64,000 nucleotides of DNA from an uncultured Mycoplasmatota bacterium (GTDB lineage Bacteria > Bacillota_I > Bacilli_A > RF39 > UBA660), in NCBI GenBank assembly GCA_946629885.1, contig CAMOYI010000014.1, positions 2,013 through 66,012 of the forward strand, written 5' to 3'. The notes under the pieces were generated by a model. It saw only the letters and a list, made by a program, of their open reading frames with translations, was not told where the DNA came from and made no database searches. The translations under genes and the position numbers were made by a program. Below, one piece after another: positions 3,057 to 24,042 of the stretch; the stretch's first letter is position 1, and every line of letters starts with the position of its first letter.

Positions 3057-6000
3057 TCACCTCACCACAATGTATTTATATATTTCGCCGACCATTGTCT
3101 CACCATCGTAAAGTTTAAATTCTAGTCTATATGTACCCGTTAATAAGTCAGTTGGAGTACTAAAAGACATAGAGTTCGTTGCATTTGGATTATCAAATAA
3201 GATATATTCATTCTGATTTGAACTTGCATTTAATTCTTCTATAATATAATCCTGTAGATCTACAGATTCAAATTCTTGAGTATATGTTGTATCATATTTT
3301 CTTCTAGACATTGAAAGTCTAATATTTGGGTTATCTAATAAAGATGAATACTCAACACTAAAATTGATATTGTTAGTTTCACCATTCTTTAAAATAACTG
3401 ATTCTGGATTAATTATAGGTTTTAATCCATAAGAACTACTTATAAAATTGAACTCCAAATTATATACGACTGGTGTTACTTTTTCAAAGTATACTCCATC
3501 CACAGAAGGAAATACTTCTATGACCATTGTGTAATTTCCAGTTGCTAGTAGCGAATTTTGTGCATTAAACATCAGCCACTTTTGGACATTACCAACTGCC
3601 TCAGATAGCGTTAAACGATAATAACCATTTATATCTGCTTGAACAGTTTTTGTACCATTAGTAATAGTTGTTCCAACTAAGTCTGTACCAGAGACAGTAT
3701 GACCGTTCTTGTCGACAAGATGCATCTGCATACCGAGTTTTTTATCGTTATTTTGTGTATCTATTACCACTAAACCATTTTGAGTAGTACTTTGATATCC
3801 AATAGATAGATTTAATACATCACTATATCCAACATAAAGTGGATCATCATCTAATGATGCATCGACAGTTATCACTGCATCTTTATCAGCGTATAAATTA
3901 TATGTAAGTTGATCTCGTTGCATACCTAAAACAGTAATTATCGATTCATCATTTACATCTCTCATCTCTAAGAGCAACGAATTTCCAAGTTTATCACTTG
4001 TTATATTTGAATCTTCAAAATCCACTATAAAGATAAATTCCTCATTACTATCAGTTCCATCATAGTATATAGAATTTCTACCTTGATCATCATAATATAG
4101 CGAACTGCCCTTAGTTCCCATAGTAACAAATGTAGAAAGATCATAAGAACATTCATTTTCCATACTAAATTCTTGAAGTGTTCTATTATAATCAGTTTCA
4201 TCAATTACATGATAATAGTATAGGTTGTTACCGTCTAATAATTCAATCATGGTTATCTTTGTACCTACTGGTAGTACAAAAGAAGAAGTCAACGCTCTAT
4301 GGTACCCAGGTTTATAAAGATTGACGTTACTACCATATAGACCATAATAAGCACTCAACTTGCTTTTTGATGTTATATTAGTCGTCGTAGATGCAAAAAG
4401 TTCATACTTATCGCCAGGTGTCATTGTTCCCTCGTATTCATTTGTTTGGAATAATGCTGTCGACATATTGACATTAATTACTAGTCTTTTAATTTCATTT
4501 TTCAAAGCATCTATCTTTGTTACTGCTATCATAGATATTCTAACTGTTCCCAAATCTTCTTCTATTGTAATGTTTTTTGAGTGGTGTAAATAGAAAAGGA
4601 ATGTAGGGACGGCATTAGTACTGTCTTTTTCGTAACTATCTCTTCCATATCTACTATTAGTTTGAATTGATTGAAATCCAGTACTACCTGGTGTAAGCCA
4701 ACCACTATTAGATGATTCCATAGATAAACCGAAATTACTATTCGCTTGAGTTTCACTTGAGGCAACCTTTGGTATTGATGCTTTATTAACGAGATTTATA
4801 CCTTGAGCCAAATCGGTAAAATCAAAACTTGTTATTGAAAATGTAGTATTTGGCTTTGCAAAATCCAAGAATGATGTTTCAACTGAACCGAGCGTAGAAT
4901 ATTTAGATGCAACTAAATTTACATTGTATTCGATTATGTTTTCACCTATAAACCACATATAAAATCTCGATGATTCAGGAGTCGGTCTAATATACTTAAC
5001 TTCATTAATCATAGTATCTTCATTCATGAAGTTACTATAGAAACCATTGATTTTTATATTATGGTTAGTTTCGTGCAATCCTAGAACGTAACTACCTTTT
5101 GAGAATGTTTCGTTCCAATCTAAAGTATCTCCTGGTGAATGATTGTTATTGTAGATACCCGTATTTACTGTGCCATCATTTGCATAATTGTAAATTCCAA
5201 AGAAACTCATTCCAATTACTTCACCGTAGTCAGTTACCTGTTGGTCTTTAGATATGTTGAGATTTCTTCCCTCATACATATATACTCTATTATTTACTGT
5301 CCTAGTAATTGTATTATTATCTTCGTCTATAGTTGCAGCAGCTGGAGTACCATCGCTAGTTAAACTTCTAAACTTCTTTAGAAGATTAGCTCCGGTTTCA
5401 AAGTATATTTCCGTATTGTTTTTAATTGTAAAGTCATCTACTCTACTTACTGCAAACAGCTCTTTATCGTAATCATTGGCTCTGTCAATTGCTCCTTTAA
5501 GTAGAATACTTGAGTTATCTATCGTTACATATGTTACTCTCTGAATAGAAATGTTTCTTTTAGGTGTACCTATGGTACCATAGTTACTGATATTTAAGTA
5601 ACTATCACCACTAGCACTCGAGGCATTACCACCGCCATAGAAAGAACCGTCAATTAGAAAATTGTTATATCCGCTAGCATCTATATCAATGTGTGTACCC
5701 TCTGTAACACTGATAAAGAACCAGTCATATATCTCTGATCCGCTTGCATTAGCTTCTCCACCGCCAAACACGTGTCCAAACACGTGGATGTCAGATTTTG
5801 TTAGTGATGAATCGTTCGAAATTGCATTAGAACCAATATTAACAATGGTATTACCATATACGACTGAAGTATTAGCGCCACCATAGATATTACCATAAAA
5901 AGTACCTCCTGCAATATTAACTGTACTTATTGAATTGTTATTGGCTTCCAATCCGGTGTACGCTTGATTACCTCCACCAAATACGCAACCACTCGTAGGG

Positions 6001-9000
6001 GCTTTACCATCTACTGAACCGATAGTAGTCTCGCCATCAATTGAAATATTTGCATTTCCTTCAAGCGTTGCGGTTAAGCCATTACCACCGGCATACGCAC
6101 TACCACCTATTGTTGCATCTGATATTGTAACAAATGATGAACCCTTTACAACGCCCTGGTTACCTCCGCCATAAACGTTTAATCTAATATTGCCGCCGTT
6201 GACATCAACATACGTATTACCAGTAACTTTAGCAAGGTTACCTCCTCCATAGATATTATTGATAGAGCCATCTTCTACAGTCACATTAGCTGTGGTAACA
6301 TCGCCAGTATTGTTTGACCCACCATAAATGTCGGTAATAGTTCCATCATTAAACAAAATATTCGTAGTAGTAACACCAGCATTATTACCTCCGCCAAATA
6401 CCGTACTTGACTCTCCACCATTGATGGTAATATTTGAAGTACCGCCATTCGCTCTATTTCCGCCACCATAGATGGTATTGTTTTGTCCACCGTTAAAAAT
6501 TATATTTGATGTAACAGTATTTCCACCAGCATTATTACCACCGTAAATCGTTTGAGCGACACCACTATTTACGGTTATATTGCTTTCAAGAACTGTTCCG
6601 CTCGAGTTAGATCCTCCAAACATATTTTGAACCGATATTTCGCCTTGTTGTACTATATTACTGGTGGTTACATTGGCACTATTTCCACTACCATATACAT
6701 TCGGTATAACTCCGTTTGCTTTATTTAGCGTAACATTAGTTGTCGTAGTATCTACTTGATTTCCACCACCATATACACTGCCATTAATGTTTGCAGTACC
6801 ATTTATCACTACATTAGTTGTAGCGCATGATCCACCTTCGTTATTGCCACCATAGACATTCTGAACAGTACCACTTGATATGTTAACTAGGGTGGTAGAT
6901 ACATCACCTAATGAATTAGAACCTCCATATATATTTGTAACTGTCGATCCCTTTTGATATATATGAGTGTTAGTAACACTTGACTTATTACCACCACCAT
7001 AGACATTTTCTATTGTACCAGCATTTAAATGTATTTCATTTTGTTTATCGTGTATGCCAGCTTGATCATTACCTCCAAACACATTTGAAATGTCGCCACC
7101 ATTTATCGTTACTGTAATATTTCCGACAACTTTTGGTGTATATGTAGTTGAACCTTTACCACCACCAAATAGTGATCCGACAATCGTTCCATCGTTAACA
7201 GTTACTGTCGTGTTATAAGAAGAACTAGTCGTATTTTCGTTAAGAGTATTTACAGAACCAAATGCTGATCCACCGTAAACATTACCTTCTACTCGGCCAT
7301 CATTTATTAAAACTGATACTCCATCTCTTACATATGTACCAGGATTATTTGAGTTTTGATAGCCACCTTCGCCACCGCCGTAAATGCTATTTACTATTTT
7401 ACCACCGTTCATCGTGACGTTTGTTGATCCATATATTGTTCCCTTTGTTCTCGATCCACCGTATACTGAATTGTTGATCGTTCCTCCGGTAACATCTATA
7501 TTTATAGTTGATGAAACATTATTTTTACCGCTGCCATTGTTATTTCCACCACCGTAAACGCTTCCTTCAATTGTACCATCTAATATTTTAATTTTTGTAT
7601 TAGTCGATCCACTCGATAGTATATAACCTGTGGCTCCGTAGTTGCCGCCACCATAAACATTACCTTTAATAGTTCCACCATTAATTAAAATATTTGAGTT
7701 ATTTACAGAACCTACTTGGTCATATCCACTTCTACCATTTCCAGCGCCAAATACACCACCTGGTGCTACGCCGTACATTCCAGTTTCATCGCCACCACCG
7801 ATATTTGCAGTGCCACCTATATAAACAAATGTGCTTCCAAATACTTCACCAGTCTGATTAGAGGCTCCAGTACTTTCACTACCATTTGATCCTCCAAAGA
7901 CACCGTATTTTACGTTACCACCTGTTACCGCTACAATTCTATTACCATACGTTGTAGATAATCCTGCTCCACCTACAATCATATCAATAGTTCCACCTTT
8001 TACATAGATGTACGTATCATTAGTATTATTTCTAGTACTTGCTGTAAATGGTCCTCCAATCAGATTGAAGATTACACCACCTTCTATAATTGCACTTCTA
8101 GCAGCATAGTGGTTAGTTCCTGAAGTACCACGACCACCAGAGTATATACCAAAGTCATAATCTAGCTTGCCATAGCCAAACTCACCACTTTTAACTATTT
8201 GAGTAATAGCTATAGAATTGCTATCTTTGCCATATAAGGCTCCTCCCCAGTTACCTGAAGCACAAAACCTTACTCTAAGCGTATTGTTGGCAGATTTTAC
8301 TCTGTCTATGTCACTACCCCAAATGGCCTTACCATCTACATATAGGCTTGTTCTAGAGGAAACAGCAGAACCAGTTGCACCTAGTTTATCATAGTGTCCA
8401 CTTTCTACTATAAATTTATATTTTTTTGGTGTCTCAGAAGAACCTATTTGACTTACATTACCAGCGTATGCTCCATTAGCACTATAGTACTCTGTAGTTC
8501 CAGAGTAACTAGTAACAGTTCTTCCAGTTATACCTCGTCCTATTTTTACATTATAATAGTTTCCATAAATATTATTAGAGGCAAGAGATGTATCTGGATT
8601 TGTGGACGGATTATTTTCATTACCAGCGAAATACGAAGTACTATACATTGTAACGTATTCGATTCTCAAATCCGCATTTGCATAAATATAGGCATTATTG
8701 ATGCCTATTCTTGCATCGTCCATATAGTTATTACCATTATTTAAAGAAGTAATTGTCATAGGTACGGTATTTCTAATATAAGTACTTGATTCTCTACTGA
8801 CATTAGCTCTTAAAACTAATACATTTGTATCTCTAGTGGTTAAATAATAGTATGTTTCATTTGGGTCCATTTCATTTAAGCTGCCATTTTCGTAGTATTG
8901 TTCGAGTTGATATACAGTACAACCGTTTCTTTGATTACAATTACCACTTTGAAGTTCCCCGGTATTAGAGTACATCCCATCGACGCTATAACCATTTCTT

Positions 9001-10757
9001 ATTGTTGTCCTAGTAAAATAACCTCCTACACCATTTGGCAATAGATTAACTATTTCTTCTGTATATGGTAGAAGAGATGCACCAGTATTTTCATTTAAAA
9101 TATAGTATGTAGCTGTTGGATCATATTCACTATCAGCTCTTACATAATAATCACATCCACCATAAGTTGTACAGTAATCATAGTATCCGCCATTATGAGG
9201 CTCTAGATAAGCCGAATATGATCCAGCTGGAAAGTCCTCATACCTTGAAATTCTGTATTTTAAAAAATATTGACTAAAATCTGTTATTCCTTCGTAAACT
9301 TTTCTGGTTTCAGTGGCCTCGATTTGCTGCATACCGGTTTTAAAGTTATTCGCTAAACTAGATAGTGTACTAGAACTGGTCAATTCATATACTACTCCAG
9401 TGTTCCAAATTGCATACATTGTAATACTAATTGGCTCTTCAACACTAGATACTGGAATTTTCACATATCTAGTATAATCAGTCATATCTATAGAGATTTC
9501 AGAACCTTCATAATCTGTAATCCATCCCATAAACACTTTAGATGTAGGTCTATTAGCGTAAGGGTTATCAATTAAGTCAATTGTAATATAACCATTTTCA
9601 ACGGGATAATACTTATAATATATGATATTTGAATATAGTTCAGTATCACTTACATAGCCGGTAAAATTGCCTGCAATATCAGTTCCAGAATATTTAATAT
9701 ATACTTTAGCTAAATTTTGATCAGTGTATTTATTTAGCCTGTTAAAGTCAGGAATATTTCCACTATCAGTAAAATACGTGTAGTCCATCGCTGTATAATA
9801 GTTCAAATCTGTAACTAAGTCATTTATATATACAGTATCACCGTCTATACCAGTGTTGTGTGCTTCGATAGTTGCACTTTTCAAAGGAACTTTAGAAATA
9901 TTTTTCTTTACAATGGTATTATTTTTAATGACTACGTTGTCATTAACTATTAATAAAGAGTAATTATCAACATTGATATTTTCAAGTAAAGGAGTTTTAT
10001 CATCTACTAATTCATAATAATTTATGTCTTCTGTACTATCGCCAATAATAGGTTTTAAATTAGCATTTACATATACATTATCAATCGATGTACCACTCTT
10101 ATCAATTACAATATCGGTTGAAAGATTGCTGTTTTCATTGACTAAAATATTAAAAATGACATTGTCTATAGATGAATCATTATCAACACGTGATAATAAA
10201 GCCACTTCTGATTGAGTTCCACTCGTATTGACAGCACCATTTATTGTCAATAATGAGAAATTTGAGTTATTAGATGTAGCCGTGAGTAAACCAGTATTAT
10301 TCGATATGTCAAATTTCATATCTGCAAAACTAATATTTTTAATGGTAGCGTTGTCAACTGAAGCGAAGATAGAATTAGTTACATGAGCATTGCTAATAGT
10401 ATGACCCAATCCATCAATCGCACCTGAGAAAGGGATCTTATTATTAATAGAAATGTTATGGTTACCATAATCAAAACTTTCAGTAATTAAATAATTTTTA
10501 TTAAAATATACAGACGAATCATCGCTTTCAAGAATATTCTTAAAATATGCAAATTCTCCGGCATTTGAAATTAAATATGGATTTTCGAGAGAACCAGTAC
10601 CACTCTTAAAAGATGTCGCAGCAACTCCGTCCCAGGCTGTGGTAGTAGTATCTACGCTAAAAGTCGAAACTATTTTCCACGATAAAAGAGAAATAACAAC
10701 AGTTACTATCAAAATAGGTATAAATTTATGCTTTTTTAGTATCGACTGCAATTTCAC
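3057..10757 (-). CDS. Giant secreted surface protein (2566 aa) with dozens of glycine-rich parallel beta-helix repeats of about 20-22 aa (Pmp-like GGxN/xxN repeats)
   Basis: N-terminal signal/TM segment (KHKFIPILIVTVVISLLSW). The central roughly 1000 aa is a tandem array of units such as TI.NVYGGGN....T.N..VN.G ([IV]YGG[GS]N recurring about 40 times). The C-terminal approximately 1300 aa is non-repetitive. No LPXTG motif. Confidence 0.8.
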   Translation of the reverse strand: MKLQSILKKHKFIPILIVTVVISLLSWKIVSTFSVDTTTTAWDGVAATSFKSGTGSLENPYLISNAGEFAYFKNILESDDSSVYFNKNYLITESFDYGNHNISINNKIPFSGAIDGLGHTISNAHVTNSIFASVDNATIKNISFADMKFDISNNTGLLTATSNNSNFSLLTINGAVNTSGTQSEVALLSRVDNDSSIDNVIFNILVNENSNLSTDIVIDKSGTSIDNVYVNANLKPIIGDSTEDINYYELVDDKTPLLENINVDNYSLLIVNDNVVIKNNTIVKKNISKVPLKSATIEAHNTGIDGDTVYINDLVTDLNYYTAMDYTYFTDSGNIPDFNRLNKYTDQNLAKVYIKYSGTDIAGNFTGYVSDTELYSNIIYYKYYPVENGYITIDLIDNPYANRPTSKVFMGWITDYEGSEISIDMTDYTRYVKIPVSSVEEPISITMYAIWNTGVVYELTSSSTLSSLANNFKTGMQQIEATETRKVYEGITDFSQYFLKYRISRYEDFPAGSYSAYLEPHNGGYYDYCTTYGGCDYYVRADSEYDPTATYYILNENTGASLLPYTEEIVNLLPNGVGGYFTRTTIRNGYSVDGMYSNTGELQSGNCNQRNGCTVYQLEQYYENGSLNEMDPNETYYYLTTRDTNVLVLRANVSRESSTYIRNTVPMTITSLNNGNNYMDDARIGINNAYIYANADLRIEYVTMYSTSYFAGNENNPSTNPDTSLASNNIYGNYYNVKIGRGITGRTVTSYSGTTEYYSANGAYAGNVSQIGSSETPKKYKFIVESGHYDKLGATGSAVSSRTSLYVDGKAIWGSDIDRVKSANNTLRVRFCASGNWGGALYGKDSNSIAITQIVKSGEFGYGKLDYDFGIYSGGRGTSGTNHYAARSAIIEGGVIFNLIGGPFTASTRNNTNDTYIYVKGGTIDMIVGGAGLSTTYGNRIVAVTGGNVKYGVFGGSNGSESTGASNQTGEVFGSTFVYIGGTANIGGGDETGMYGVAPGGVFGAGNGRSGYDQVGSVNNSNILINGGTIKGNVYGGGNYGATGYILSSGSTNTKIKILDGTIEGSVYGGGNNNGSGKNNVSSTINIDVTGGTINNSVYGGSRTKGTIYGSTNVTMNGGKIVNSIYGGGEGGYQNSNNPGTYVRDGVSVLINDGRVEGNVYGGSAFGSVNTLNENTTSSSYNTTVTVNDGTIVGSLFGGGKGSTTYTPKVVGNITVTINGGDISNVFGGNDQAGIHDKQNEIHLNAGTIENVYGGGNKSSVTNTHIYQKGSTVTNIYGGSNSLGDVSTTLVNISSGTVQNVYGGNNEGGSCATTNVVINGTANINGSVYGGGNQVDTTTTNVTLNKANGVIPNVYGSGNSANVTTSNIVQQGEISVQNMFGGSNSSGTVLESNITVNSGVAQTIYGGNNAGGNTVTSNIIFNGGQNNTIYGGGNRANGGTSNITINGGESSTVFGGGNNAGVTTTNILFNDGTITDIYGGSNNTGDVTTANVTVEDGSINNIYGGGNLAKVTGNTYVDVNGGNIRLNVYGGGNQGVVKGSSFVTISDATIGGSAYAGGNGLTATLEGNANISIDGETTIGSVDGKAPTSGCVFGGGNQAYTGLEANNNSISTVNIAGGTFYGNIYGGANTSVVYGNTIVNIGSNAISNDSSLTKSDIHVFGHVFGGGEANASGSEIYDWFFISVTEGTHIDIDASGYNNFLIDGSFYGGGNASSASGDSYLNISNYGTIGTPKRNISIQRVTYVTIDNSSILLKGAIDRANDYDKELFAVSRVDDFTIKNNTEIYFETGANLLKKFRSLTSDGTPAAATIDEDNNTITRTVNNRVYMYEGRNLNISKDQQVTDYGEVIGMSFFGIYNYANDGTVNTGIYNNNHSPGDTLDWNETFSKGSYVLGLHETNHNIKINGFYSNFMNEDTMINEVKYIRPTPESSRFYMWFIGENIIEYNVNLVASKYSTLGSVETSFLDFAKPNTTFSITSFDFTDLAQGINLVNKASIPKVASSETQANSNFGLSMESSNSGWLTPGSTGFQSIQTNSRYGRDSYEKDSTNAVPTFLFYLHHSKNITIEEDLGTVRISMIAVTKIDALKNEIKRLVINVNMSTALFQTNEYEGTMTPGDKYELFASTTTNITSKSKLSAYYGLYGSNVNLYKPGYHRALTSSFVLPVGTKITMIELLDGNNLYYYHVIDETDYNRTLQEFSMENECSYDLSTFVTMGTKGSSLYYDDQGRNSIYYDGTDSNEEFIFIVDFEDSNITSDKLGNSLLLEMRDVNDESIITVLGMQRDQLTYNLYADKDAVITVDASLDDDPLYVGYSDVLNLSIGYQSTTQNGLVVIDTQNNDKKLGMQMHLVDKNGHTVSGTDLVGTTITNGTKTVQADINGYYRLTLSEAVGNVQKWLMFNAQNSLLATGNYTMVIEVFPSVDGVYFEKVTPVVYNLEFNFISSSYGLKPIINPESVILKNGETNNINFSVEYSSLLDNPNIRLSMSRRKYDTTYTQEFESVDLQDYIIEELNASSNQNEYILFDNPNATNSMSFSTPTDLLTGTYRLEFKLYDGETMVGEIYKYIVVR

Positions 10758-10820
10758 TTCTAAGCCTACTTTCCTATTGTTTATTTTATCATAATTAGTA
10801 GAAAAAGGGAATAATTTAGC

Positions 10821-10846
10821 AAAAAAAAAGAAGATAAAATCTTCTT
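10821..10846 (-). terminator. Strong intrinsic terminator between the 368-aa TasA-like gene and the giant gene
   Basis: Minus-strand RNA folds as AAGAAGAU-UUU-AUCUUCUU followed by U9. Confidence 0.7.
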
Positions 10847-10851: not shown

Positions 10852-11958
10852 TTAAGCCTCATTTGCTTCTCTAATACTTAACTCTAGATTGAATGTAATA
10901 TCTGTACCAGAAGCATTGTTTTCACAGTCAATATCTTGACCTTCAATCCACATGTATACACGCATCTTAGTAACACCTGCATTAAGTGTGAATATGTTAT
11001 AGTCAGTATTAGCTGCCAATGTGCCAGGAGTTGATAGTAACAATCCAGAAGTAGAATATACTCCACCAGAATTTGAAACAGTTCCAGCAGATACTACTTC
11101 AGAGAAAGTAGTGCTATCATATTGAGTAACTGTACCCTTAACTGCACCGATTAAATCCTGTGCTTTATTTGTAGGTATTGCAGCTTTAATACCATAATAT
11201 GTAACTGGATTACCACCACTTGCAGTTAATGCGTTAGAACCAGTGAAACCATATTCAGTACCAACACTGTTGACAACAGCAGTTGAGTGTAAATCGTTAT
11301 TAGGTTCCCAAATTTTAATTGATGGGAAATTCGTGTAATATGCTTGAGTTATTTCTTGAACAGTTGCAGTTGATGCAGCTTCACCAATAGGAACGAATGC
11401 TACACGAGCTGCATTTTTAAGACCTCTATCAGAAGATCCCTCAGCCATAACTACATTTGAACCACTATCAGAGGTATTGATGTATACCTTTTTCTTTGCA
11501 CTAACCTTGAAGAATAGATCAAATGCGACAAATTTTGTTCTGTCTGTTGATTCATCTACTGAATTAGTAGCAAGTGTATATGCACCACTTGTTGCATCAG
11601 TACCGATAACACTACTAAACATATTTAAAACTCTTGTCTTACTTGAACTGTTTTCTGTTGTTGCACCAGAAGTAGATACTGCATCTAATGTTTCTGGGAT
11701 AAAGTTGTTTGCGCCAGAATAAGCTCCAGTTTTAATATCAGATTGAGTAACTACTGATTTCCAAGTACTACCATTTGTTGAAATCTGCAAACCGTCGCTT
11801 GTCTCAACGTGTACATTGATGCTTTCGATATTTACAACTCTATTTGCAGTAAACCATGCATAAGTCGATGCACCAAACATTACGATTGTTAAAAACAATA
11901 GTAATATTAATGATCTAAATTTTTTGTTCTTTTTTTCACTTTTTTTAGCTTTAGCCAT
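10852..11958 (-). CDS. TasA/camelysin-like secreted protein with SipW-cognate signal peptide (368 aa)
   Basis: N-terminus K-rich, then hydrophobic, then GASTYAWFTAN, compared with TasA GGGTWAAFND and CalY GGGTFAFFSD. C-terminal motif RVYMWIEGQDIDC is shared with the paralogs. AGGAG RBS. Confidence 0.7.
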   Translation of the reverse strand: MAKAKKSEKKNKKFRSLILLLFLTIVMFGASTYAWFTANRVVNIESINVHVETSDGLQISTNGSTWKSVVTQSDIKTGAYSGANNFIPETLDAVSTSGATTENSSSKTRVLNMFSSVIGTDATSGAYTLATNSVDESTDRTKFVAFDLFFKVSAKKKVYINTSDSGSNVVMAEGSSDRGLKNAARVAFVPIGEAASTATVQEITQAYYTNFPSIKIWEPNNDLHSTAVVNSVGTEYGFTGSNALTASGGNPVTYYGIKAAIPTNKAQDLIGAVKGTVTQYDSTTFSEVVSAGTVSNSGGVYSTSGLLLSTPGTLAANTDYNIFTLNAGVTKMRVYMWIEGQDIDCENNASGTDITFNLELSIREANEA

Positions 11959-12691: not shown

Positions 12692-12906
12692 AACATCACC
12701 ACATCACATATTGATATCATCTACCATACGTCAATATCGTAAAATATTTTTGGTAAAAAGTCAATATAATTTTTTCGTTAATTATCGAATCACAATTAAC
12801 TCTATTTTATGTAAATTTTGGTGTAAAATGTCAAAAAAAAACGATATTTTCGACAAAAATCATCTTAATTTTTGTAAAATTAAGTTAAGGAAAGGAGTAA
12901 TGGTAA

Positions 12907-15783: not shown

Positions 15784-17307
15784 CTATGCCATCTTCTTAA
15801 GTCGCAACAAATACTCAATACATTCAGACATTTTATTCTCTCCAAAAGTATCATTTAAGAATTTGATAAATCCATCTATTTCATCTCTGATGTATGCAAT
15901 ATTTAATTGTTCAAATTTCCTCAAAATTTTACGCGCAATAAAGTAATCGATACCTCTTATTTCATCTCCTCCGCAGGCTACAAATACAGGTACAAACTTT
16001 TTCATATGCGCAACTATTCTGTTACCGAAGGCAATACGGAAGTGTTTGATTACATAATCATCCATTTCCTCTATTTTCTTTAAATTGTCTTCATGAATTT
16101 GGTTATTTGCAATTGCATCCTGGAAAAGTTTATCTACATATGAATAATTTATGTCTTGACTAGGTGTATCAATTGGTTCAAAAACAGTACCTTTGTCATT
16201 GATGTCGATCGGCATAGCACGGTCGTATACCTTATCAGTAACCATAAATGTCGAGTCATCGTTATTTATTGTACCTATGTACCACACATTTGCTGGTATC
16301 TGTAATTTACCTTCTTTTAAGTGAACTGGGTCATTCTTCCATGCGCTTGGAACAATTTCTACAATCCACTCGTTTTTATCAGGCATTTCCAAAATAGATA
16401 GCATCTCTGCAAAATAGTATTCCACACGAGAAATATTCATCTCATCTAATATTACTGTGTATATGTCGTCTGTGTAACTTGCAACATACAATTCCTTTAA
16501 AACTTCAGTTTCGTTAAATCTCTTAGTAAACTCATTAAAGTATCCAAACAATTCTGTTCTATCACGCCACGATGGTTGAACCGAGGCAATACATGAATCG
16601 TGTTTTAAAAATTTTCCCCAGGCATAAGCTAGCGATGTTTTACCTGTACCAGAAATACCTTGCAAAATTACAAGCTTTGTCGATGCTAAAGCTGAAATAA
16701 AGAGTCTTATCATATCAGTAGTATAATATAATCTTAACTGACTAGCAGCAAAGTTTCTAAATAGTTCAACTAGCTCAGGCAATTCAAAACTGTTTCCATA
16801 ATTCTGAACCTTATAATCTTTAAATTTGTAGTCGACATCGGTCAATTTTGGGAATCTAATTTCAGTATTAGGATCAACTGAGTCATCTTCTTGTGTAACA
16901 TCTTCAGTATCAGATTCATCAGGCTTTAGTCCAAGTTTAGAAACCTTCATCGCGAGAATTGTTTCCTTTTCTTTCATGAGTTTCGCAACTTCATTATTTA
17001 GGGTTCCAACCTCCTCAAGAAGAGACTCTTGTTCAACTAAAGACTTTCTAATTCTGATATACTTTCTGATTAAGAAATATATTCCAAGCACTATTAAAGT
17101 TAAGAACGCCAAAGTTATAAGTATGGCAAGACCGACTAACAACCATTCAGGAATCGAGAAATCGTTTTTATATTCTCCTACTACCCTTACGTACTCTGGA
17201 ATATTAAATACAGATTTAAATCCCTTAACAAGACCATTAAATATATACTTTATTCCATTAAATATTTGAGATAAAAACTCGTATAAGAATCTCAAAAATG
17301 TATCCAT
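15784..17307 (-). CDS. Membrane-anchored McrB-family AAA+ GTPase/ATPase
   Basis: Two N-terminal TM helices plus a coiled coil. Walker A GISGTGKTS. McrB-type Walker B and sensor ILDEMNISRVEYYFAEMLSILE (compare McrB DEINRA). WYIGTINNDDST (compare McrB GTMNTAD). Confidence 0.75.
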   Translation of the reverse strand: MDTFLRFLYEFLSQIFNGIKYIFNGLVKGFKSVFNIPEYVRVVGEYKNDFSIPEWLLVGLAILITLAFLTLIVLGIYFLIRKYIRIRKSLVEQESLLEEVGTLNNEVAKLMKEKETILAMKVSKLGLKPDESDTEDVTQEDDSVDPNTEIRFPKLTDVDYKFKDYKVQNYGNSFELPELVELFRNFAASQLRLYYTTDMIRLFISALASTKLVILQGISGTGKTSLAYAWGKFLKHDSCIASVQPSWRDRTELFGYFNEFTKRFNETEVLKELYVASYTDDIYTVILDEMNISRVEYYFAEMLSILEMPDKNEWIVEIVPSAWKNDPVHLKEGKLQIPANVWYIGTINNDDSTFMVTDKVYDRAMPIDINDKGTVFEPIDTPSQDINYSYVDKLFQDAIANNQIHEDNLKKIEEMDDYVIKHFRIAFGNRIVAHMKKFVPVFVACGGDEIRGIDYFIARKILRKFEQLNIAYIRDEIDGFIKFLNDTFGENKMSECIEYLLRLKKMA

Positions 17308-17316: not shown

Positions 17317-18294
17317 CTATATACTTATTATCTTTGATCTGACATACTCTTTCTTTTTAATTAGTTTTTCAAACTCCTCTGTATTTTTATTGACGAGAAT
17401 GTATGGGAATAGTATCAATTCCATAGTATTTCCATCAAATGATGAGTCGAGTTCCAAAGCAAATGAGAAACCCTTTTGCAAATATTTGTCGATGATATCC
17501 TTATGTTCGATATAGTCACTATATAATAATCTCATAAAAATATGCTTTTTGGCAAGAGTAGAATCCAAAATATTAATAAGTCTTTCTAATTTTTTATCTT
17601 TTTCAAAAAGCGTAGGTGGCAAGTCAACCACATATTTTTTGGAGAAATCTAAGCTAATTGCATTATTTAAAACAATTTGCGCTGCCAAAATATAACAGAC
17701 AAATGCTTTGTCTTCCCTTACTATTCCGCTGTTATAAACTTTGTCTATTGCAAATTCACTATATAAATTTGATATTTTTACATTGTGTCCTAACTCTATA
17801 GAATATAATGTGCGATATATTCTCTTTTCAATTGCAACAAAGTCACGTGTATATAGCGCTTCGTCAAATAATGCTTTATCACACTTGAATCCGACATACC
17901 ATGTCCTTAGTCTCTCCGCCAAATGCTCTCTATCTTCAATTTTAACTATGTCACTCGAGGCAATATACTCGATAAATTCCCCTTCGTGCTCAATCGGACA
18001 TACATCATCAAAATATAAAATATATCCAAAAATCGCAATAATATTTTTTAAAATATTATGGTTGGCGTTCTCACCAAATGTTTCTAATACATCGAGTAGT
18101 TCTTTATTTAATCTATCTGTGAAATCTTTAACTTTAGGGTAATTAGTTTCATCATAATATCTAACCATAAAATATCTATCTAAAAACATAGAACACAACT
18201 CTTTTGAATACTTGTTTTTTAAAATTATTTTAAAAAGAGATAAATAATTTTTTTTTAAAAAGTCCATATATTCTGCAATTATATTTATCTTCAA
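17317..18294 (-). CDS. Hypothetical cytoplasmic protein (325 aa) in the same operon
   Basis: ORF 10 bp upstream of the NTPase gene, with no recognised motif. Confidence 0.5.
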   Translation of the reverse strand: MKINIIAEYMDFLKKNYLSLFKIILKNKYSKELCSMFLDRYFMVRYYDETNYPKVKDFTDRLNKELLDVLETFGENANHNILKNIIAIFGYILYFDDVCPIEHEGEFIEYIASSDIVKIEDREHLAERLRTWYVGFKCDKALFDEALYTRDFVAIEKRIYRTLYSIELGHNVKISNLYSEFAIDKVYNSGIVREDKAFVCYILAAQIVLNNAISLDFSKKYVVDLPPTLFEKDKKLERLINILDSTLAKKHIFMRLLYSDYIEHKDIIDKYLQKGFSFALELDSSFDGNTMELILFPYILVNKNTEEFEKLIKKKEYVRSKIISI

Positions 18295-18305: not shown

Positions 18306-19217
18306 CTATCTTCCACCTAATTCAGTAACAGTTATTGGGGCATAACCACCCGCGTTGGTACTAAACACGTCTTCGGCATTTACTTTATAAAATTTTACAT
18401 CTATTGCACTCATAGGATTTATATTTGTCGTAAAAGAATTAATATATGGTATACCATTAATTATATTTGTCGTGTAGTTATTTGTTTCAATAATATTGTC
18501 AGTAGAATCGATAATTAGGGCATTTGCGTCAAATGACACGCTTACCTCTGTTCCTTCGCATTTTGTCTTATCTTCTTGCGAGAGCTCTCTATATTCATCT
18601 ATACTAATCCTATCCAGTGGCTGGTAGTCTCCAAATGCGGTTTTCACAATATAGTAATTTTTAGCATTAGTAATAGTAAGCTTAGCATATACAGGCCCGT
18701 AATCTGTTAATGTATACGAAATTCCGCTTTGAGCTACTTGGTAAAAAAAATCTGCGTATAAATTTTGTTCATAAGGGAATGTGCTTTTAGCAGCGATATC
18801 AATAAGAAGCGTATCATGTTCATTAAATTTTTCCAAAGGTTGAACATGAATTACGACAGTATCTGTATGATCTGGGTCGGATGCATATATCACACCACTT
18901 TTACTCTCGAGACTGCATTCCACATTGTCAGGACAATCGACAAATACTTCATATGGCACATCATAGTCCACATAGTATAAATTATTCTTCTTAGTACTTA
19001 AATCGAAGGTGATATCAAAGGCTCCTACACCCGACCAATTGTTCAAGGTATATATAGTTGTACCATTTGGCTTTAAGACATTGCTAGTGAATGAAAATTC
19101 TTTTGCATTAGTAAAGTATCCATGATAATCTTCGGCAATAAATTTAGCGAACGTTACTCCTACTAAAGAGATAATCATGATAATTAGTCCAATCAATAAA
19201 TTTTTTTTCTTTATCAT
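18306..19217 (-). CDS. Secreted protein with SipW-cognate signal (303 aa)
   Basis: N-terminus MIKKKN, hydrophobic, then GVTFAKFIAE. Confidence 0.65.
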   Translation of the reverse strand: MIKKKNLLIGLIIMIISLVGVTFAKFIAEDYHGYFTNAKEFSFTSNVLKPNGTTIYTLNNWSGVGAFDITFDLSTKKNNLYYVDYDVPYEVFVDCPDNVECSLESKSGVIYASDPDHTDTVVIHVQPLEKFNEHDTLLIDIAAKSTFPYEQNLYADFFYQVAQSGISYTLTDYGPVYAKLTITNAKNYYIVKTAFGDYQPLDRISIDEYRELSQEDKTKCEGTEVSVSFDANALIIDSTDNIIETNNYTTNIINGIPYINSFTTNINPMSAIDVKFYKVNAEDVFSTNAGGYAPITVTELGGR

Positions 19218-19816
19218 CTTGACACGTCCTGTTCTGCATTGATCTTAATGTCGATTAGTTCAATCATCCCAGCATAATATTCAGGAAAAATCTTATTGCT
19301 AATTGGATAATTAACAACTAAGTAGTAATAATCAGTTACATCATCGTCATATCCCATCATATTAACTTGATCAATGATTAGATGCTTAAAGAAAACACCG
19401 TCATCATTTGTAGTTATAATGTCTTGGTCGAGGATTTCATTAGATAACTGTTCGTCAGAATAAACTGAATATTCAAGCGGCAAATTAGTCGTAGTTATAA
19501 TTTCAATATTATATTTTAAATCTACATCCGCATGGCGTTCACTATTAAAATTAGATACGCTGAAACAGTATACATATGGTTCTTTGTTCGGAACAATATT
19601 TTCGAGTTCGATTTGGCCTGTTTGTGTCCCAACATCAACTATAAAGAAGGCAACATTTGGACTGGATGTTGCGGTAACTCGACTTTCGTATCGCGCTTGT
19701 ATAAAATTAAAGGAACTAATTAAAATAAGAGCTACAATAAAAACTACACTTATTATCAAGTAGTGTTTAAAATCTTTTAAATTTATATTATGTAAAAATT
19801 TCTTTAGCTCCTTCAT
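19214..19816 (-). CDS. Secreted protein with SipW-cognate-like signal (about 200 aa)
   Basis: Start moved to the ATG at 19816 (AGGTG RBS; the TTG at 19846 has no usable RBS spacing). Hydrophobic segment followed by SSFNFIQARYESRV. Confidence 0.55.
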   Translation of the reverse strand: MKELKKFLHNINLKDFKHYLIISVVFIVALILISSFNFIQARYESRVTATSSPNVAFFIVDVGTQTGQIELENIVPNKEPYVYCFSVSNFNSERHADVDLKYNIEIITTTNLPLEYSVYSDEQLSNEILDQDIITTNDDGVFFKHLIIDQVNMMGYDDDVTDYYYLVVNYPISNKIFPEYYAGMIELIDIKINAEQDVSR

Positions 19817-19826
19817 TTTGATACAC

Positions 19827-20669
19827 CTACTTAACCTTCGAGTCAATTCTCCTTCTTATTTCGTTTAGATCCAATCTGACAGTATAATTTATAAAGTTTT
19901 TTTCTTTCTCGGAAAGTCTTAGTGGCAATTCTTCACTGCCTTCTTCAATTTTATTTATTTCGCATTTTATATTGTTCAATTCTTTTTTATTGAGTTTTAT
20001 ACCTGGCTCTTCAATCAGTTTATTTATTTCTGATATATCTATTTTTCTTGTCAATTCTAGTAGTTGTTCAGGCTCTCTAAATATATCAGATTTATTTTCT
20101 TCCGACTTCACTTCAGTAATTATTATTGGATTTTCCAGTTCAGTTTCTTTTTTCTTTTCATCGATTTTTTGTTCATCTTTTTTATTGTAAGATAGAGCAA
20201 AATCGAAGAGTAACAATGTTACAAATAGTGCAATAATTATTTTTGGATCAGTCAATACCTTTTTCCACAAGCCTAAGTGAGGAAATATTTTTACCACAGG
20301 TCCAATTATTTGATCTATTTTAATTGGTTTATCTACAGTATTGTTGTTATCACCTTTTACTATAACGCTATCGCCATCGATATATACAACACGGTGAGTA
20401 ATAACAGATTCTCCGTCAGTAAAAGCTATTATGTCGTCCTTTTCTATATTTTTGTTTCCAAACTTTACTGCAATTACATCGTTGATATCTAGGGTTGGTT
20501 TCATTGAACCACTTGCAACTTCAAAGAAAGTATACCCAAAGTAATTCGGATACAACTTATTTGAGAATGTGACACTGACTTTTCCATAAATTATGAGAAC
20601 TAATATTGCTAATAGTATATAAGTAAGACCATTTATAGTTATTTTTACTATCTTTTTAATATAGTTCAT
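19827..20669 (-). CDS. Signal peptidase I, ER/archaeal type (second SipW-like) with a roughly 110-aa K/E-rich C-terminal extension
   Basis: TM segment, then SGSMKPTL and VITHRVVYI boxes, a second TM segment, then a charged tail. Confidence 0.75.
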   Translation of the reverse strand: MNYIKKIVKITINGLTYILLAILVLIIYGKVSVTFSNKLYPNYFGYTFFEVASGSMKPTLDINDVIAVKFGNKNIEKDDIIAFTDGESVITHRVVYIDGDSVIVKGDNNNTVDKPIKIDQIIGPVVKIFPHLGLWKKVLTDPKIIIALFVTLLLFDFALSYNKKDEQKIDEKKKETELENPIIITEVKSEENKSDIFREPEQLLELTRKIDISEINKLIEEPGIKLNKKELNNIKCEINKIEEGSEELPLRLSEKEKNFINYTVRLDLNEIRRRIDSKVK

Positions 20670-20692
20670 ATGTCACCTCCTCTATTCTTTTA

Positions 20693-21250
20693 TTATTCCC
20701 CTAAATATTGTTCACAATGAACATCAAAATTAATATTATAATTTAATCCTATCAATTTATTATCATCTTCGTCATATTCATCAATACTTGTCCAAATTAA
20801 GCGATAATTAATATTTGTGATTTTAGATACATCGTCTTGGCCAAAAATAACTTTATAACTTTTAGTGCTATTTAGTAAATTTGGAATTGATGAATTCTCA
20901 ATAAAAACATCTATATTTTCATGTTCCAATATTTCATCATTTTGCATATCAATGGTACACACTGTTGCAACATCTGTTCCTTCTGCTGATAAGTCTATTC
21001 TGAAGCTTCCTCCATTTCCCGGGGCAATATATCCTTCTCTTACGTGAATGTTATTATCATATATAAACATATCCAATGGTACGCTTTCACTATATGAAAC
21101 AAGGTTGCTATTAATAAAGATTGACCATCTACCAATCGCTAATTCATTTACCGATTCTGCATTGGTTTCAAAAAGAGCGTACGTCTTAACTATGTATAAA
21201 GCCGTAATACAAAGAACGATAAAGCTTACTAAAAACAATCTTTTTTTCAT
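20693..21250 (-). CDS. TasA-like secreted protein with SipW-cognate signal (about 185 aa)
   Basis: MKKRLFLVSFIVLCITALYIVKTYALFETNAES. Shares the IAPG..F.ID and RLIWTSIDEYDEDD motifs with its paralogs. The start is uncertain (ATG at 21250 or at 21298). Confidence 0.6.
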   Translation of the reverse strand: MKKRLFLVSFIVLCITALYIVKTYALFETNAESVNELAIGRWSIFINSNLVSYSESVPLDMFIYDNNIHVREGYIAPGNGGSFRIDLSAEGTDVATVCTIDMQNDEILEHENIDVFIENSSIPNLLNSTKSYKVIFGQDDVSKITNINYRLIWTSIDEYDEDDNKLIGLNYNINFDVHCEQYLGE

Positions 21251-21251
21251 A

Positions 21252-21794
21252 CTAATCGACCGCGTTTTTATCAGCTTTTGACTTTTGGGCCGCGTCAAAA
21301 ATCATCATGATCTCATATATAATGGCAAAAAGCGTAGGCAATATTACCATGAACATAAATCCCCATTTTGATGTAAATACATTTAAGATCATTCCTATTT
21401 TATGGTAAGATTTACTGCTTTCAATTTTACCTATTACATATTCGCCTGAAACTTTTTCTCCGTCAATTGTATACGTGGTTTCCTTACGATCAATTTCTTG
21501 CTTATCTTGAACGAAACCGTTATACACCATTACTTTTGTATTTTTTGCGCTGTTGTAATAAAATACTTTATCCCCAATATTAATTTTGTTATCACTATTA
21601 CGCTTGACAACTAGTAAATCACCTTCCAGAATATCTGGTTCCAATTCATCACTGTCGATTATAAGAAGCGTTTTTCTGCCAAAAGTTGTTACTTTAAATT
21701 CATTGTATGATAACAAGCAAACAGTTGTAAAAAGTGCTATCACGAGCCAAACACTTATAACTACATTCAATAAAAACCTAGCTATTTTTTTCAT
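21252..21794 (-). CDS. Catalytically degenerate SipW-like signal-peptidase homolog (pseudo-peptidase)
   Basis: Has the architecture of a TM segment followed by a peptidase-box region. The Ser box reads IIDSDELEPDI, with the catalytic Ser position occupied by Glu. No THR His box is present. Confidence 0.45.
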   Translation of the reverse strand: MKKIARFLLNVVISVWLVIALFTTVCLLSYNEFKVTTFGRKTLLIIDSDELEPDILEGDLLVVKRNSDNKINIGDKVFYYNSAKNTKVMVYNGFVQDKQEIDRKETTYTIDGEKVSGEYVIGKIESSKSYHKIGMILNVFTSKWGFMFMVILPTLFAIIYEIMMIFDAAQKSKADKNAVD

Positions 21795-21900: not shown

Positions 21901-21905
21901 CCTTT

Positions 21906-22793
21906 TTATGGAATAGGTATTCTTAATTCTATTCCAGTCATATCGTCATATTTATTTCGAATAGTCGAATTAGAATAGTATAGTACATCACCTAATCCGC
22001 CAGCTTGAAGAGTATATGACATTGACTGAGCTCTTGTTAGTGAACTTTGTGCATGTTGATAAGTCGTAAATACGTGGGCAGTAGAATAATTGTATTCACT
22101 TATTTGCATGTCTGCTACCAGTGTCATTAAGAAAGATGTGATATTTGTATCATCTTTTAAATTCATTGAAATTCCTGCACCATTACTTAGCCCTTTATAA
22201 CCCGCAGAATTTGAGTTATAGTTGATGCTTGTTTGATTATTACCAACATAATATGCCTGCACACCTGCAACATTTGAGTATGATAAGTGCTTAGTTCTAA
22301 ATGCAATCACATCATAAGACCTAGTTGCCGGTACTATTTTCCAAAGTAACTGTACAGAGAAATCATAAAAATTACTCATTTCGAATATACTTGCTGAAAG
22401 CGCCTTATAATTGGTTTCAAAGAAACCTCCATCATTACTTCTAGTACTTTCATCACAAATTGCTGTATTAACTGGTGCAGACTCAAACTCTTCCTTTGTT
22501 ATTTCATGTTCACTTACAACATTGTTACCCTGGTATACAGTTTTAAAGTATTTTGTCTCAGAATTGACAAGCCTTGCATTCAAGTATTTTTGTACTTCTT
22601 CATACGTAAAATTGTCTATTTGAACCATATAAAATGTATTTAACAACTTATTTATTTCTTCTTCGGTTAAAATGACACCTTTTTTATTTACGTAACAGTT
22701 ATTACAGTCAATGTCTTTTGCAATTACGTCAAAACTTGATCCAAACCAGATTGCTAAAGCAATAAGTACCATAAAAAATATAGCTTTTTTCAT
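21906..22793 (-). CDS. Secreted hypothetical protein with a classical Sec signal peptide
   Basis: Start at the ATG at 22793 (AAGGAG RBS). Sequence MKKAIFFMVLIALAIWFGSSFDVIAKD. Confidence 0.6.
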   Translation of the reverse strand: MKKAIFFMVLIALAIWFGSSFDVIAKDIDCNNCYVNKKGVILTEEEINKLLNTFYMVQIDNFTYEEVQKYLNARLVNSETKYFKTVYQGNNVVSEHEITKEEFESAPVNTAICDESTRSNDGGFFETNYKALSASIFEMSNFYDFSVQLLWKIVPATRSYDVIAFRTKHLSYSNVAGVQAYYVGNNQTSINYNSNSAGYKGLSNGAGISMNLKDDTNITSFLMTLVADMQISEYNYSTAHVFTTYQHAQSSLTRAQSMSYTLQAGGLGDVLYYSNSTIRNKYDDMTGIELRIPIP

Positions 22794-22866
22794 TTTTACT
22801 CCTTTCTGTTTAAATATTAACTTATAATGAAAATTAAAACACGCTACCTGGAGTAGCATGTCCTTA

Positions 22867-24042
22867 TTAATTAAAACTACTAAATATATCAATTAATAAA
22901 TTTATGAATTTTAATGTCTCTTTTTGTTCCGAAAATAATACGTCAATCTTCAATTCATGATTTATTACTTTTCCTGTAAAAATATGTACATTCAAAGCTT
23001 GTATATTTCGTATAGAAAATACTTTTGTATTCATGTCAAGTTTAAATAAAAAGTTGCCATCTGAAATTGTGAGAAAATTATTACTATATTCTATATTATA
23101 ATTTTTTTCTCTTCTATTTAACAGCCTAATTCTATCTTCTTCAATCATATTGAATAAACCAAATAATTCTATCGAAGTTGATAAATTATTAAAATACTTG
23201 CCTTTATCACATGTTTTCAATTTATAAGGAAACTCAGGCCTATAATTGTCTTTAAACAATTTGTTTCTTTGCTGTTCGAATTGATTAATATCATTGCTCT
23301 TGTATCTAAGTTCAATATTTAATGGAACAATTTTTTCCTGCTCTATTTCGTCATTAGATACATATTTTACTCGAAGCATAAGTTCGTCTTTTAATGACTC
23401 CATATTAACATCTGTTAATTCCTTGTAATTTGAATTTCTAAAGTATGCTTGGTTATTCATGCTGTAGGTTGCGATAGTTTTTTTAGTATTCTCATCAATC
23501 TGTCTATACAATTCAACATTTACAGACGAGTCACCCTGTATTTCTTTATCATCTATCCAGACCGTACCGAAATTAATGTATATCTTACTTCTAGTCGAAA
23601 TAATTATACCGTTCTTAACATATAGTCCATCGTCTTCATAAAACACATCATATATTTTTGTTGCATTATAATTTTCAAAAAAGAATATAAGAAGGCATAC
23701 AATCAGCAAGATGATAATAATTCTTATAGTGTTTTTGATACGTTTATTTTTAAAAACCCTAATTACATAATCGAATGTATTATTAGCCTCATCACTATCA
23801 CACTTAAATTCGCCTGAAAGGATTTCTTCGAGCGATACTCCAAATAGATTTGCAATACGCGGTATTAAATCAATTGATGGATAGCAAATACCATTCTCCC
23901 ATTTACTTACAGCTTTTCTAGTGACATATATCATATCACCTAGTTCTTCCTGTGTTAGATTATGAGATATCCGAAGCATTTTAATAAATGCACCAGTTTT
24001 CTCTGGACCCGGATAATTTATAGAGGTATTATTATCGTTCAT
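22867..24042 (-). CDS. Membrane-anchored XRE-family HTH transcriptional regulator with an extracytoplasmic C-terminal domain
   Basis: N-terminal HTH (LTQEELGDMIYVTRKAVSKWENG), a central TM helix and a roughly 250-aa C-terminal domain. Confidence 0.7.
   Translation of the reverse strand: MNDNNTSINYPGPEKTGAFIKMLRISHNLTQEELGDMIYVTRKAVSKWENGICYPSIDLIPRIANLFGVSLEEILSGEFKCDSDEANNTFDYVIRVFKNKRIKNTIRIIIILLIVCLLIFFFENYNATKIYDVFYEDDGLYVKNGIIISTRSKIYINFGTVWIDDKEIQGDSSVNVELYRQIDENTKKTIATYSMNNQAYFRNSNYKELTDVNMESLKDELMLRVKYVSNDEIEQEKIVPLNIELRYKSNDINQFEQQRNKLFKDNYRPEFPYKLKTCDKGKYFNNLSTSIELFGLFNMIEEDRIRLLNRREKNYNIEYSNNFLTISDGNFLFKLDMNTKVFSIRNIQALNVHIFTGKVINHELKIDVLFSEQKETLKFINLLIDIFSSFN

Follow-up and report, generated by a model that had tools for sequence, protein, structure and literature searches.

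A probable CoCoPALM-type locus with SipW-like signal peptidases, pilin-like paralogs and a membrane-anchored McrB-like GTPase in an uncultured gut or rumen Bacilli bacterium

Gene content and conservation of the locus

We analysed a 64,000-nucleotide stretch of contig CAMOYI010000014.1 (assembly GCA_946629885.1), hereafter called the window, which has a guanine-plus-cytosine (GC) content of about 30%. The region 1425-21794 of the window is probably a CoCoPALM-type locus on the chromosome of a Bacilli bacterium, an uncultured low-GC organism of gut or rumen; in this locus, genes for signal peptidases, small exported proteins and a giant surface protein accompany a gene for a membrane-anchored McrB-like GTPase. 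It is rather likely that this locus encodes a system for the biogenesis of surface filaments and an adhesin. Base composition is level throughout the locus, and its neighbours are ychF (24042-25226) and parB/parA (27716-29450). The name CoCoPALM was given by Bell et al. 2024 (eLife, PMC11090510) to McrBC systems linked to signal-peptidase and pilus-assembly genes.

Most of the genes form a packed minus-strand array (21794-13499) in the order SPa180, par201, SPb280, par210, par303, U325, McrB-like, McrC-like, SPc178 and par207. With the starts called on a contig carrying identical proteins, the gaps within this array range from a small overlap up to 23 bp. A second minus-strand group consists of anch237, par368, a hairpin with a U-run, the gene for a 2566-aa protein and a gene for a 503-aa K/E-rich protein. 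All described genes of the locus lie on the minus strand except par199. Every gene that a preliminary description of this DNA had listed was found at its coordinates, and the tight spacing reported there holds once the starts from the identical contig are applied. That description had missed that the third gene of the McrB/McrC/U325 trio is EAL-like, that par199 lies on the opposite strand and that the locus reaches to 1425-2936; the genes of the second transcription unit that it placed at 12691-3057 stand, but the locus extends further, to cc503. The features are as follows.

SPa180: 21252-21794, minus strand; predicted catalytically dead SipW-like pseudo-peptidase with two transmembrane (TM) segments, opening the packed array
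par201: 20693-21298, minus strand; small exported subunit with a TYALFET signal
SPb280: 19827-20669, minus strand; archaeal/ER-type (SipW-like) signal peptidase, predicted to be active; charged tail on the cytoplasmic side, about 120 aa
par210: 19214-19846, minus strand; small exported subunit with a FNFIQARY signal
par303: 18306-19217, minus strand; exported subunit with a TFAKFIA signal
U325: 17317-18294, minus strand; cytoplasmic protein; helical domain at the N-terminus, then a predicted degenerate EAL-like domain
McrB-like GTPase, NxD clade: 15784-17307, minus strand; N-terminal TM segment and short coiled-coil-like helix
McrC-like partner: 14669-15775, minus strand; DUF2357 N-domain, nuclease-free, helical C-terminal tail
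SPc178: 14122-14658, minus strand; archaeal/ER-type (SipW-like) signal peptidase, predicted to be active
par207: 13499-14122, minus strand; small exported subunit with a TFAWFIY signal
par199: 12907-13506, plus strand; small exported subunit with a TYAKYIS signal, convergent with par207
Divergent intergenic region between anch237 and par199: 12692-12906, no strand; presumed to hold promoters
anch237: 11978-12691, minus strand; membrane-anchored paralog without a cleavage motif
par368: 10852-11958, minus strand; candidate major filament subunit with a TYA/WF signal (the slash marks the predicted cut)
Hairpin and U-run 3' of par368: 10820-10846, minus strand; modest terminator or attenuator
Giant 2566-aa surface protein: 3057-10757, minus strand; N-terminal signal/anchor and about 30 YGGGN-type repeats, candidate adhesin
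cc503: 1425-2936, minus strand; cytoplasmic K/E-rich protein, probably coiled-coil

The hairpin after par368, earlier called a strong terminator, is only modest (-6.7 kcal/mol, z-score -2.5). A terminator of -12.6 kcal/mol sits between the array and two upstream genes, which encode a 328-aa secreted protein and a membrane XRE protein. A promoter and terminator scan did no better than on shuffled sequence, so that the operon boundaries rest on gene spacing and the two hairpins. An Rfam search found no riboswitch or other RNA control element within the locus. par199 and par207 overlap by 8 bp at their 3' ends. The inversion of par199, the sole system gene on the opposite strand, is preserved in nearly all Bacilli-type loci, suggesting separate or antisense-coupled regulation.

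A scan of one genome per species gave at least 588 McrB-like relatives, and linkage was counted in the best 80 of these (at least 50% identical) together with one identical contig, i.e., in 81 loci. The best 80 relatives came from uncultured gut or rumen metagenome-assembled genomes (MAGs) labelled Bacilli, Tenericutes, Mollicutes or Erysipelotrichaceae, or Clostridia (Acutalibacteraceae, Ruminococcus sp. CAG:488 and Oscillospiraceae). The McrB-like gene is accompanied by a peptidase-family gene in 78-79 loci (in L050, an apparent miss, the peptidase is diverged); by a McrC-like gene in 76; and by at least one pilin-like paralog, also in 76. Orthologues of par207, anch237 and par303 were counted in 52, 46 and 39 of the 81 loci, respectively, those of anch237 also occurring in minimal Clostridia-type loci. 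The Bacilli-type loci repeat the gene order of the window, including the inverted par199. The minimal core of the Clostridia-type loci reads EAL, anchor paralog, par368-like subunit (TYAWFSM), peptidase, McrB and a long McrC (680-980 aa), often with an additional protein of 2000-2400 aa. The genes for the exported proteins, the peptidases and the McrB/McrC/U325 trio are inherited together across Bacilli and Clostridia. At two loci, L074 and L077, which may be exceptions or split loci, the McrB- and McrC-like genes show about 54% identity, and no peptidase or pilin-like gene was detectable within 10 kb.

Signal peptidases and exported proteins

Three peptidase-family genes are interspersed among the genes for exported proteins. 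Against TIGR02228, the model of archaeal-type signal peptidase I with a cutoff of 51.85 bits, SPc178 scored 86.2 bits and SPb280, which also matches Pfam S24/S26, scored 54.8 bits; SPa180 failed with 35.3 bits. The SM.P, THR and KGD.N..D boxes are kept in SPb280 and SPc178 and in all of their orthologues (65 for SPc178). SPa180 is homologous to both of these families, as found by profile-profile comparison with hhalign (99.6-99.8%). Because its Ser and His boxes are missing in 46 of 46 orthologues, SPa180 is, as judged from the alignment, a conserved pseudo-peptidase. The preliminary description of two ER-type peptidases and one degenerate copy was thus correct, the degenerate copy being a conserved pseudo-enzyme. 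TM segments, predicted here and below from hydrophobic stretches, lie at residues 11-29 and 148-166 of SPa180 and at 10-28 and 144-162 of SPb280. None of the three proteins reached the equivalog cutoff of Bacillus SipW (30-65 bits versus 190), and we therefore call them SipW-like rather than SipW orthologues.

Eight exported proteins of the locus carry a SipW-type signal, i.e., a K-rich stretch, a hydrophobic stretch and T-[YF]-A/x-[FY] with an aromatic P2' residue. The motifs TYAWFTA, TFAWFIY, TFAKFIA, TYAKYIS, TYALFET and FNFIQARY, each preceded by K-rich and then hydrophobic residues, are exactly those listed in the earlier description. The pattern [ST][FYW]A.[FYW] occurs within the first 70 residues of 6 of the 56 open reading frames of the window, and five of these lie in the locus, each with the pattern directly after a hydrophobic segment. 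According to one TasA study, an aromatic P2' residue is what makes TasA a SipW-specific substrate (PMC10269814). In an alignment of 83 relatives of par368, residues T32-Y33-A34-W35-F36-T37, N39 and V42 are invariant, as is the C-terminal block W337-x-E-G-Q-D-x-D-C.

The exported proteins are only weakly similar to one another in pairwise BLAST. The hhalign comparison, using families built from orthologues, links all seven paralogs, although some of the links span the signal region and are hence partly compositional. par199 pairs with par201 at 100%, and par207 with both of them at 96-97% over the full length; par210 is linked to par201 (97%) and to par303 (96%). par368 is linked to anch237 at 97% over the C-terminal WIEGxDxDC motif (WIEGDDPDC in anch237) and to par201 at 96% over the N-terminal 90 residues. 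From these profile links, the paralogy claimed earlier is real but distant. The start calls on the identical contig place the probable true start of par201 at 21250, giving a 185-aa version, and that of par210 at 19816. In anch237, a TM segment lies at residues 25-43.

A structure of par368 was predicted from 83 sequences with a mean pLDDT (predicted local distance difference test) score of 88.6. Most of the core scores above 90, residues 41-60 average 66-77 and residues 29-39 fall below 50. The low confidence of the N-terminus fits a strand that would need a partner. A Foldseek search of the model against the PDB returned nothing significant. The structural neighbours are the TasA fibre (4.9), the cannula protein CanX (4.6), several chaperone-usher pilins (about 4) and the archaeal bundling pilin (3.5), which are mostly donor-strand filament subunits, so the model links par368 weakly to donor-strand filament proteins. 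For the archaeal donor-strand filaments, namely the Sulfolobus acidocaldarius threads (7pnb), the bundling pili (7ueg) and the Pyrodictium cannulae (9h8b), the similarity is confined to the beta-sandwich core, and neither a McrBC-like GTPase nor an EAL component has been described for them.

Identity to par368 falls to 41% within its top 120 relatives, whereas the top 120 database relatives of the McrB-like protein are 81-93% identical to it. Such a contrast is expected between conserved machinery and rapidly diversifying surface subunits. Five loci (L053, L066, L037, L071 and L073) carry two to four tandem par368-family genes of differing lengths (up to 585 aa), suggesting subunit diversification. 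One par368-family gene (L044:1961-3430) encodes a C-terminal bacterial Ig-like domain.

The giant protein contains about 30 imperfect YGGGN repeats of 24-27 residues each, which are visible at the protein level only; no tandem repeats were found in the DNA of its gene. No Pfam, NCBIfam or PDB match was obtained for this protein. Of the beta-helix protein described earlier, the repeats are confirmed, and the beta-helix itself is inferred because the repeat pattern alone supports it. Orthologues of the giant gene accompany the locus in 23 of the 81 loci at positions that vary between genomes, and their N-termini carry P[ST][FL][AGS][RK][FL] signals such as PSFARF and PTFSRF. Orthologues of cc503, which has no TM segment, adjoin the system in 19 of the 81 loci, beside the giant gene or par368, again at varying positions.

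The McrB/McrC/U325 module

The McrB-like protein (507 aa) has an AAA+ domain that matches Escherichia coli McrB, with Walker A and Walker B motifs present. Across 62 aligned, diverse relatives, the sequence N348-x-D350 followed by D/E, i.e., the NxD signature, does not vary, and most of 150 representatives have G-T-x-N-x-D-[DE]-S. At its N-terminus, one TM segment (56-74) and a charged, heptad-like helix take the place of a nucleic-acid-binding domain. The membrane McrB-like NTPase reported before is therefore confirmed by its TM segment, its Walker motifs and the match to E. coli McrB. The only family match of this N-terminal part is FtsL_2, at a sub-threshold expect value (E) of 0.058. The GTPase also matches PADLOC PDC-M26A (1.5e-35), and it is the only protein of the locus with a PADLOC match. 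A search of 1.8 billion representatives gave 8283 McrB-like relatives, and a database search gave 8000 matches, of which the top 120 are all more than 80% identical. The relatives have three architectures: about 500 aa with one or two TM segments, as here; 550-680 aa with four to six TM segments; and 700-870 aa with none. The subgroup with four to six N-terminal TM segments is large among the NxD relatives (representatives P0283-P0389).

The gene for the McrC-like protein (368 aa) starts 8 bp downstream of the McrB-like gene. The protein matches PF09823 (DUF2357, the McrC N-domain) at 1.5e-10, and all its invariant residues lie within positions 44-246; the last 120 residues are helical and unconserved, and this C-terminal part matches only a designed helical protein. 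No D..ExK motif or PD-(D/E)xK nuclease is conserved in the McrC-like family. A nucleic-acid-binding or nuclease domain was not detectable in any component of the locus.

U325, the third member of the trio, gave no Pfam match to EAL (PF00563) at E up to 5 and only spurious matches in a profile search of the PDB. The hhalign comparison with the true EAL proteins encoded by related loci gave a probability of 5%, with aligned regions that agree with the later structural result. A model built from 52 sequences (pLDDT 90.9) has an EAL (TIM-barrel-like) fold. According to this model, U325 consists of a helical domain at the N-terminus followed by a degenerate EAL-like domain; the canonical EAL, DDFG and EGVE motifs are not among its invariant residues. 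At least 11 genomes encode an SPb-type peptidase with the U325 domain fused to its cytoplasmic C-terminus. In the fusion protein of L061, the peptidase with its two TM segments occupies residues 10-191 and the U325 domain residues 406-735. A stand-alone EAL protein of about 250 aa (Pfam 1e-46) stands at the operon head in 16 Clostridia loci (L047, L049-L051, L062, L063, L065, L067, L069, L070, L072, L075 and L078-L081; e.g., L050:5469-6224). By eye, several canonical catalytic positions seem to be substituted in these clostridial proteins.

Bell et al. reported an FtsB-like TM and coiled-coil domain fused to the GTPase in the CoCoPALM clade (PMC11090510). Their description of CoCoPALM comprises two sentences without a component list and defers a fuller account to a later paper; the supplementary files hold no CoCoPALM details, and we found no follow-up paper. 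In common with CoCoPALM, the window has a McrB GTPase of the NxD type, whose N-terminus holds a TM segment and a helix that may be a coiled coil, a McrC homologue (DUF2357) next to it and signal-peptidase-family genes, of which there are three here. The testable defining features are thus present, and the window locus is a member of CoCoPALM, a kind known in the literature by name only. The McrC homologue is short here (368 aa, with a helical tail only), whereas its clostridial relatives have 680-980 aa. The published account is silent on the three peptidase genes (one of them predicted to be dead), the EAL-like partner, the seven pilin-like paralogs and the giant adhesin candidate found here. 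The preliminary description knew of no system with such components, a statement outdated by the naming of CoCoPALM in 2024 (PMC11090510).

Similarity to McrBC type IV restriction systems and CoCoNuTs lies in the AAA+ GTPase matching E. coli McrB, the NxD signature of the CoCoNuT branch and the DUF2357 McrC N-domain. In contrast to those systems, the GTPase here lacks an N-terminal domain for binding DNA or RNA, nucleases of the PD-(D/E)xK, HEPN or any other type are absent, and the protein is membrane-anchored and set among secretion and surface genes. One might nevertheless suppose that the trio is an independent anti-phage cassette, type IV restriction-like or a PADLOC candidate, that landed in a SipW/pilin locus, considering that McrB proteins are known above all from restriction systems, that PADLOC PDC-M26A is matched at 1.5e-35 and that distant relatives occur on plasmids and two phage contigs. 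However, the plasmid and phage matches are below 40% identity and cover the GTPase domain alone, and no close full-length McrB-like relative was found in the plasmid and phage collections. Peptidase and pilin-like genes flank the trio in 76-79 of the 81 Bacilli and Clostridia loci with a constant internal order, the U325-peptidase fusions recur, the McrC-like protein lacks the PD-(D/E)xK domain, the McrB-like protein bears a TM anchor instead of a DNA-binding domain, and GC content is flat across the locus. The defence-cassette idea, already largely refuted, was rejected on synteny, and we consider it highly improbable. An independent mobile cassette, named beforehand as the finding that would speak against a role of the trio in the array, was thus not what the plasmid and phage matches indicated. 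Because synteny is kept across two bacterial classes, peptidase fusions exist and a nuclease is absent, the McrB-like trio belongs to the system as an integral component and is not an inserted defence cassette, in agreement with the earlier view that it belongs to the array.

Degenerate EAL receptors control a surface adhesin or pili in LapD/LapG/LapA and FimX. U325 differs from these receptors in having no sequence-level EAL match, GGDEF or HAMP; furthermore, the protease family is S26 here, in contrast to the cysteine protease LapG, and the host is of Gram-positive type. The resemblance raises the alternative that no filament is made and that the locus carries out LapD/LapG/LapA-style regulated proteolysis, in which the EAL-like sensor and the GTPase would control peptidases that cleave N-terminal anchors and thereby retain or release the giant adhesin and the smaller proteins. 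The fusion of the EAL-like domain to the cytoplasmic end of a peptidase with an outward catalytic domain suits this arrangement, as do a giant repeat adhesin with a matching signal type travelling with the locus and the weak support for a TasA-like fold. However, the seven small and medium paralogs with co-conserved N- and C-terminal strands look more like major and minor pilins than like independent cargo, most structural neighbours of par368 are filament subunits, and many loci lack the giant gene. The pilin-like set and the structural neighbours weigh against regulated proteolysis as the sole function, which we regard as unlikely.

A proposed filament and adhesin assembly system

Fibre or adhesin assembly, the role suggested in the preliminary description, stands as the best reading of the locus. 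In the mechanism that we propose, the exported subunits would cross the membrane via Sec, and SPb and SPc would cleave them after the TxA (T-[YF]-A) motif. par368 would be the major subunit and would polymerise with minor subunits by donor-strand complementation, its new N-terminus (WFTxN..V) pairing with the C-terminal WIEGxDxDC region of a neighbouring subunit. The co-conserved N- and C-terminal segments and the low-confidence N-terminal strand in the monomer model provide indirect backing for such polymerisation. The small paralogs may serve as minor, tip or adaptor subunits, and the uncleaved anch237 may nucleate the filament or tie it to the membrane in a TapA-like manner. The giant repeat protein would be a co-exported adhesin, and the putative pseudo-peptidase SPa180 may hold or present substrates. 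The McrB ring, tethered by its TM segment and helix and activated by the McrC N-domain, would act as a cytoplasmic GTP-driven switch or motor for export, peptidase activity or anchoring. U325, or the true EAL protein in Clostridia, would couple the system to cyclic di-GMP (c-di-GMP) or a related signal in the style of LapD or FimX.

This scheme resembles the tapA-sipW-tasA operon of Bacillus subtilis, sipW-tasA-calY of Bacillus cereus and sipW-bsaA of Clostridium perfringens, in which an archaeal-type signal peptidase likewise lies beside its substrates. Shared features are the signal ending in T-x-A/x-F with an aromatic P2' residue, a major subunit with accessory and anchoring paralogs, and the TasA fibre among the best structural neighbours of par368. 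Unlike the window locus, these operons have no NTPase, EAL-like protein or pseudo-peptidase. In TasA fibres the N-terminus serves as donor strand to the next subunit (PMC9674648), and TapA nucleates or anchors the TasA filament (PMC10151520). For C. perfringens, type IV pilus proteins, not McrBC-like proteins, have been proposed to assist BsaA export (PMC11580942); this proposal would, by analogy, be one precedent for an NTPase-containing machine aiding a SipW substrate.

Several points weigh against fibre assembly as described above. We know of no NTPase requirement in the known donor-strand filaments (TasA, threads, cannulae and chaperone-usher pili), and for this reason the role of the GTPase is a guess and the weakest step of the mechanism. 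A filament, a cleavage site, GTPase activity and c-di-GMP binding have not yet been observed for any member. The TasA, Peptidase_M73 and SipW-cognate (TIGR0408x) models of Pfam and NCBIfam matched none of the seven paralogs at E up to 5-10, contrary to the TasA/SipW-cognate assignment in the preliminary description; TasA-family models likewise gave no match among 44 members of the small-subunit family, and profile searches of PDB sequences with the paralogs did not retrieve TasA. Membership of the paralogs in the TasA family is thus not shown. FtsB homology of the McrB-like N-terminus is only hinted at by the match with E 0.058. U325 has no recognisable EAL sequence motifs and may bind a protein rather than a nucleotide, like YdiV. 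Finally, the systems nearest to the GTPase by relationship, CoCoNuTs and PADLOC PDC-M26A, are predicted to serve defence.

The last point suggests another explanation, in which the locus as a whole serves conflict or defence: a McrBC-like sensor would detect infection or stress, and the envelope would be remodelled through the processing and release of surface proteins, which would shield or shed phage receptors. Besides the PADLOC match and the placement of the GTPase in the NxD clade, whose CoCoNuT members are predicted defence systems, the fast divergence and variable copy number of the surface subunits are as expected under phage pressure. However, none of the components has a detectable domain for nuclease activity or nucleic-acid binding, the chromosomal context beside ychF and parAB is conserved with no marks of mobile elements, and the high conservation of the GTPase in a reduced-genome lineage suggests a core cell-surface function. 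EAL and c-di-GMP links are, moreover, typical of the control of adhesion and biofilms. A defence role of the entire locus therefore seems improbable to us, and we retain the assembly of filaments and adhesin as the probable function. A more specific version, in which a restriction-enzyme motor has been re-used in a pilus machine, so that a tethered McrB ring with a nuclease-less McrC, gated by the EAL-like component, which may sense c-di-GMP, drives or licenses the export, processing and anchoring of fibre and adhesin, is possible and is put forward tentatively.

This locus couples candidate TasA-type fibres of a Gram-positive-type host to a restriction-derived GTPase and an EAL-like sensor. 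To our knowledge, no energy-using component has been described for TasA-type matrix fibres. Should a restriction-enzyme motor indeed have been re-used in a pilus machine, fibres of the TasA class would have their first assembly or control pathway that depends on an NTPase, and this pathway would be common among uncultured gut Bacilli and Clostridia. Several hundred species-level genomes at the least, from uncultured gut and rumen Bacilli and Clostridia, carry the locus type; reduced-genome lineages are among them, and the retention of about 20 kb in reduced genomes implies that the locus matters for surface biology or host association. The system is widespread, and as a class it has already been recognised. 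New here are the EAL-like partner and its fusion to peptidases, the finding of true EAL genes at clostridial loci, a pseudo-peptidase that is conserved, the anchor paralog and the minimal conserved core, as well as the weak link of the candidate major subunit to donor-strand filament proteins in the structural model. This parts list yields concrete experimental hypotheses where the literature had offered a name only.

Upstream of the array, the genes for the 328-aa secreted protein (21906-22892, minus strand) and a 391-aa membrane XRE-family helix-turn-helix protein (22867-24042, minus strand) overlap by 26 bp and are followed by the strong terminator. The preliminary description had placed both immediately upstream of the second transcription unit's genes and the array, giving the secreted protein as 296 aa. 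Neither has a counterpart in the 80 related loci, and with the strong terminator in between, they were rejected as system parts; they are probably a separate lineage-specific unit. At the other end, just past cc503, lies a gene for an N-acetylmuramoyl-L-alanine amidase with four LysM repeats (161-1366, minus strand), which indicates peptidoglycan in the host despite the Tenericutes or Mollicutes labels of related MAGs. Elsewhere in the window, Rfam matches identified a T-box leader (46371-46551, minus strand; 110.9 bits) and a small signal recognition particle (SRP) RNA (56288-56371, minus strand; 49.7 bits).

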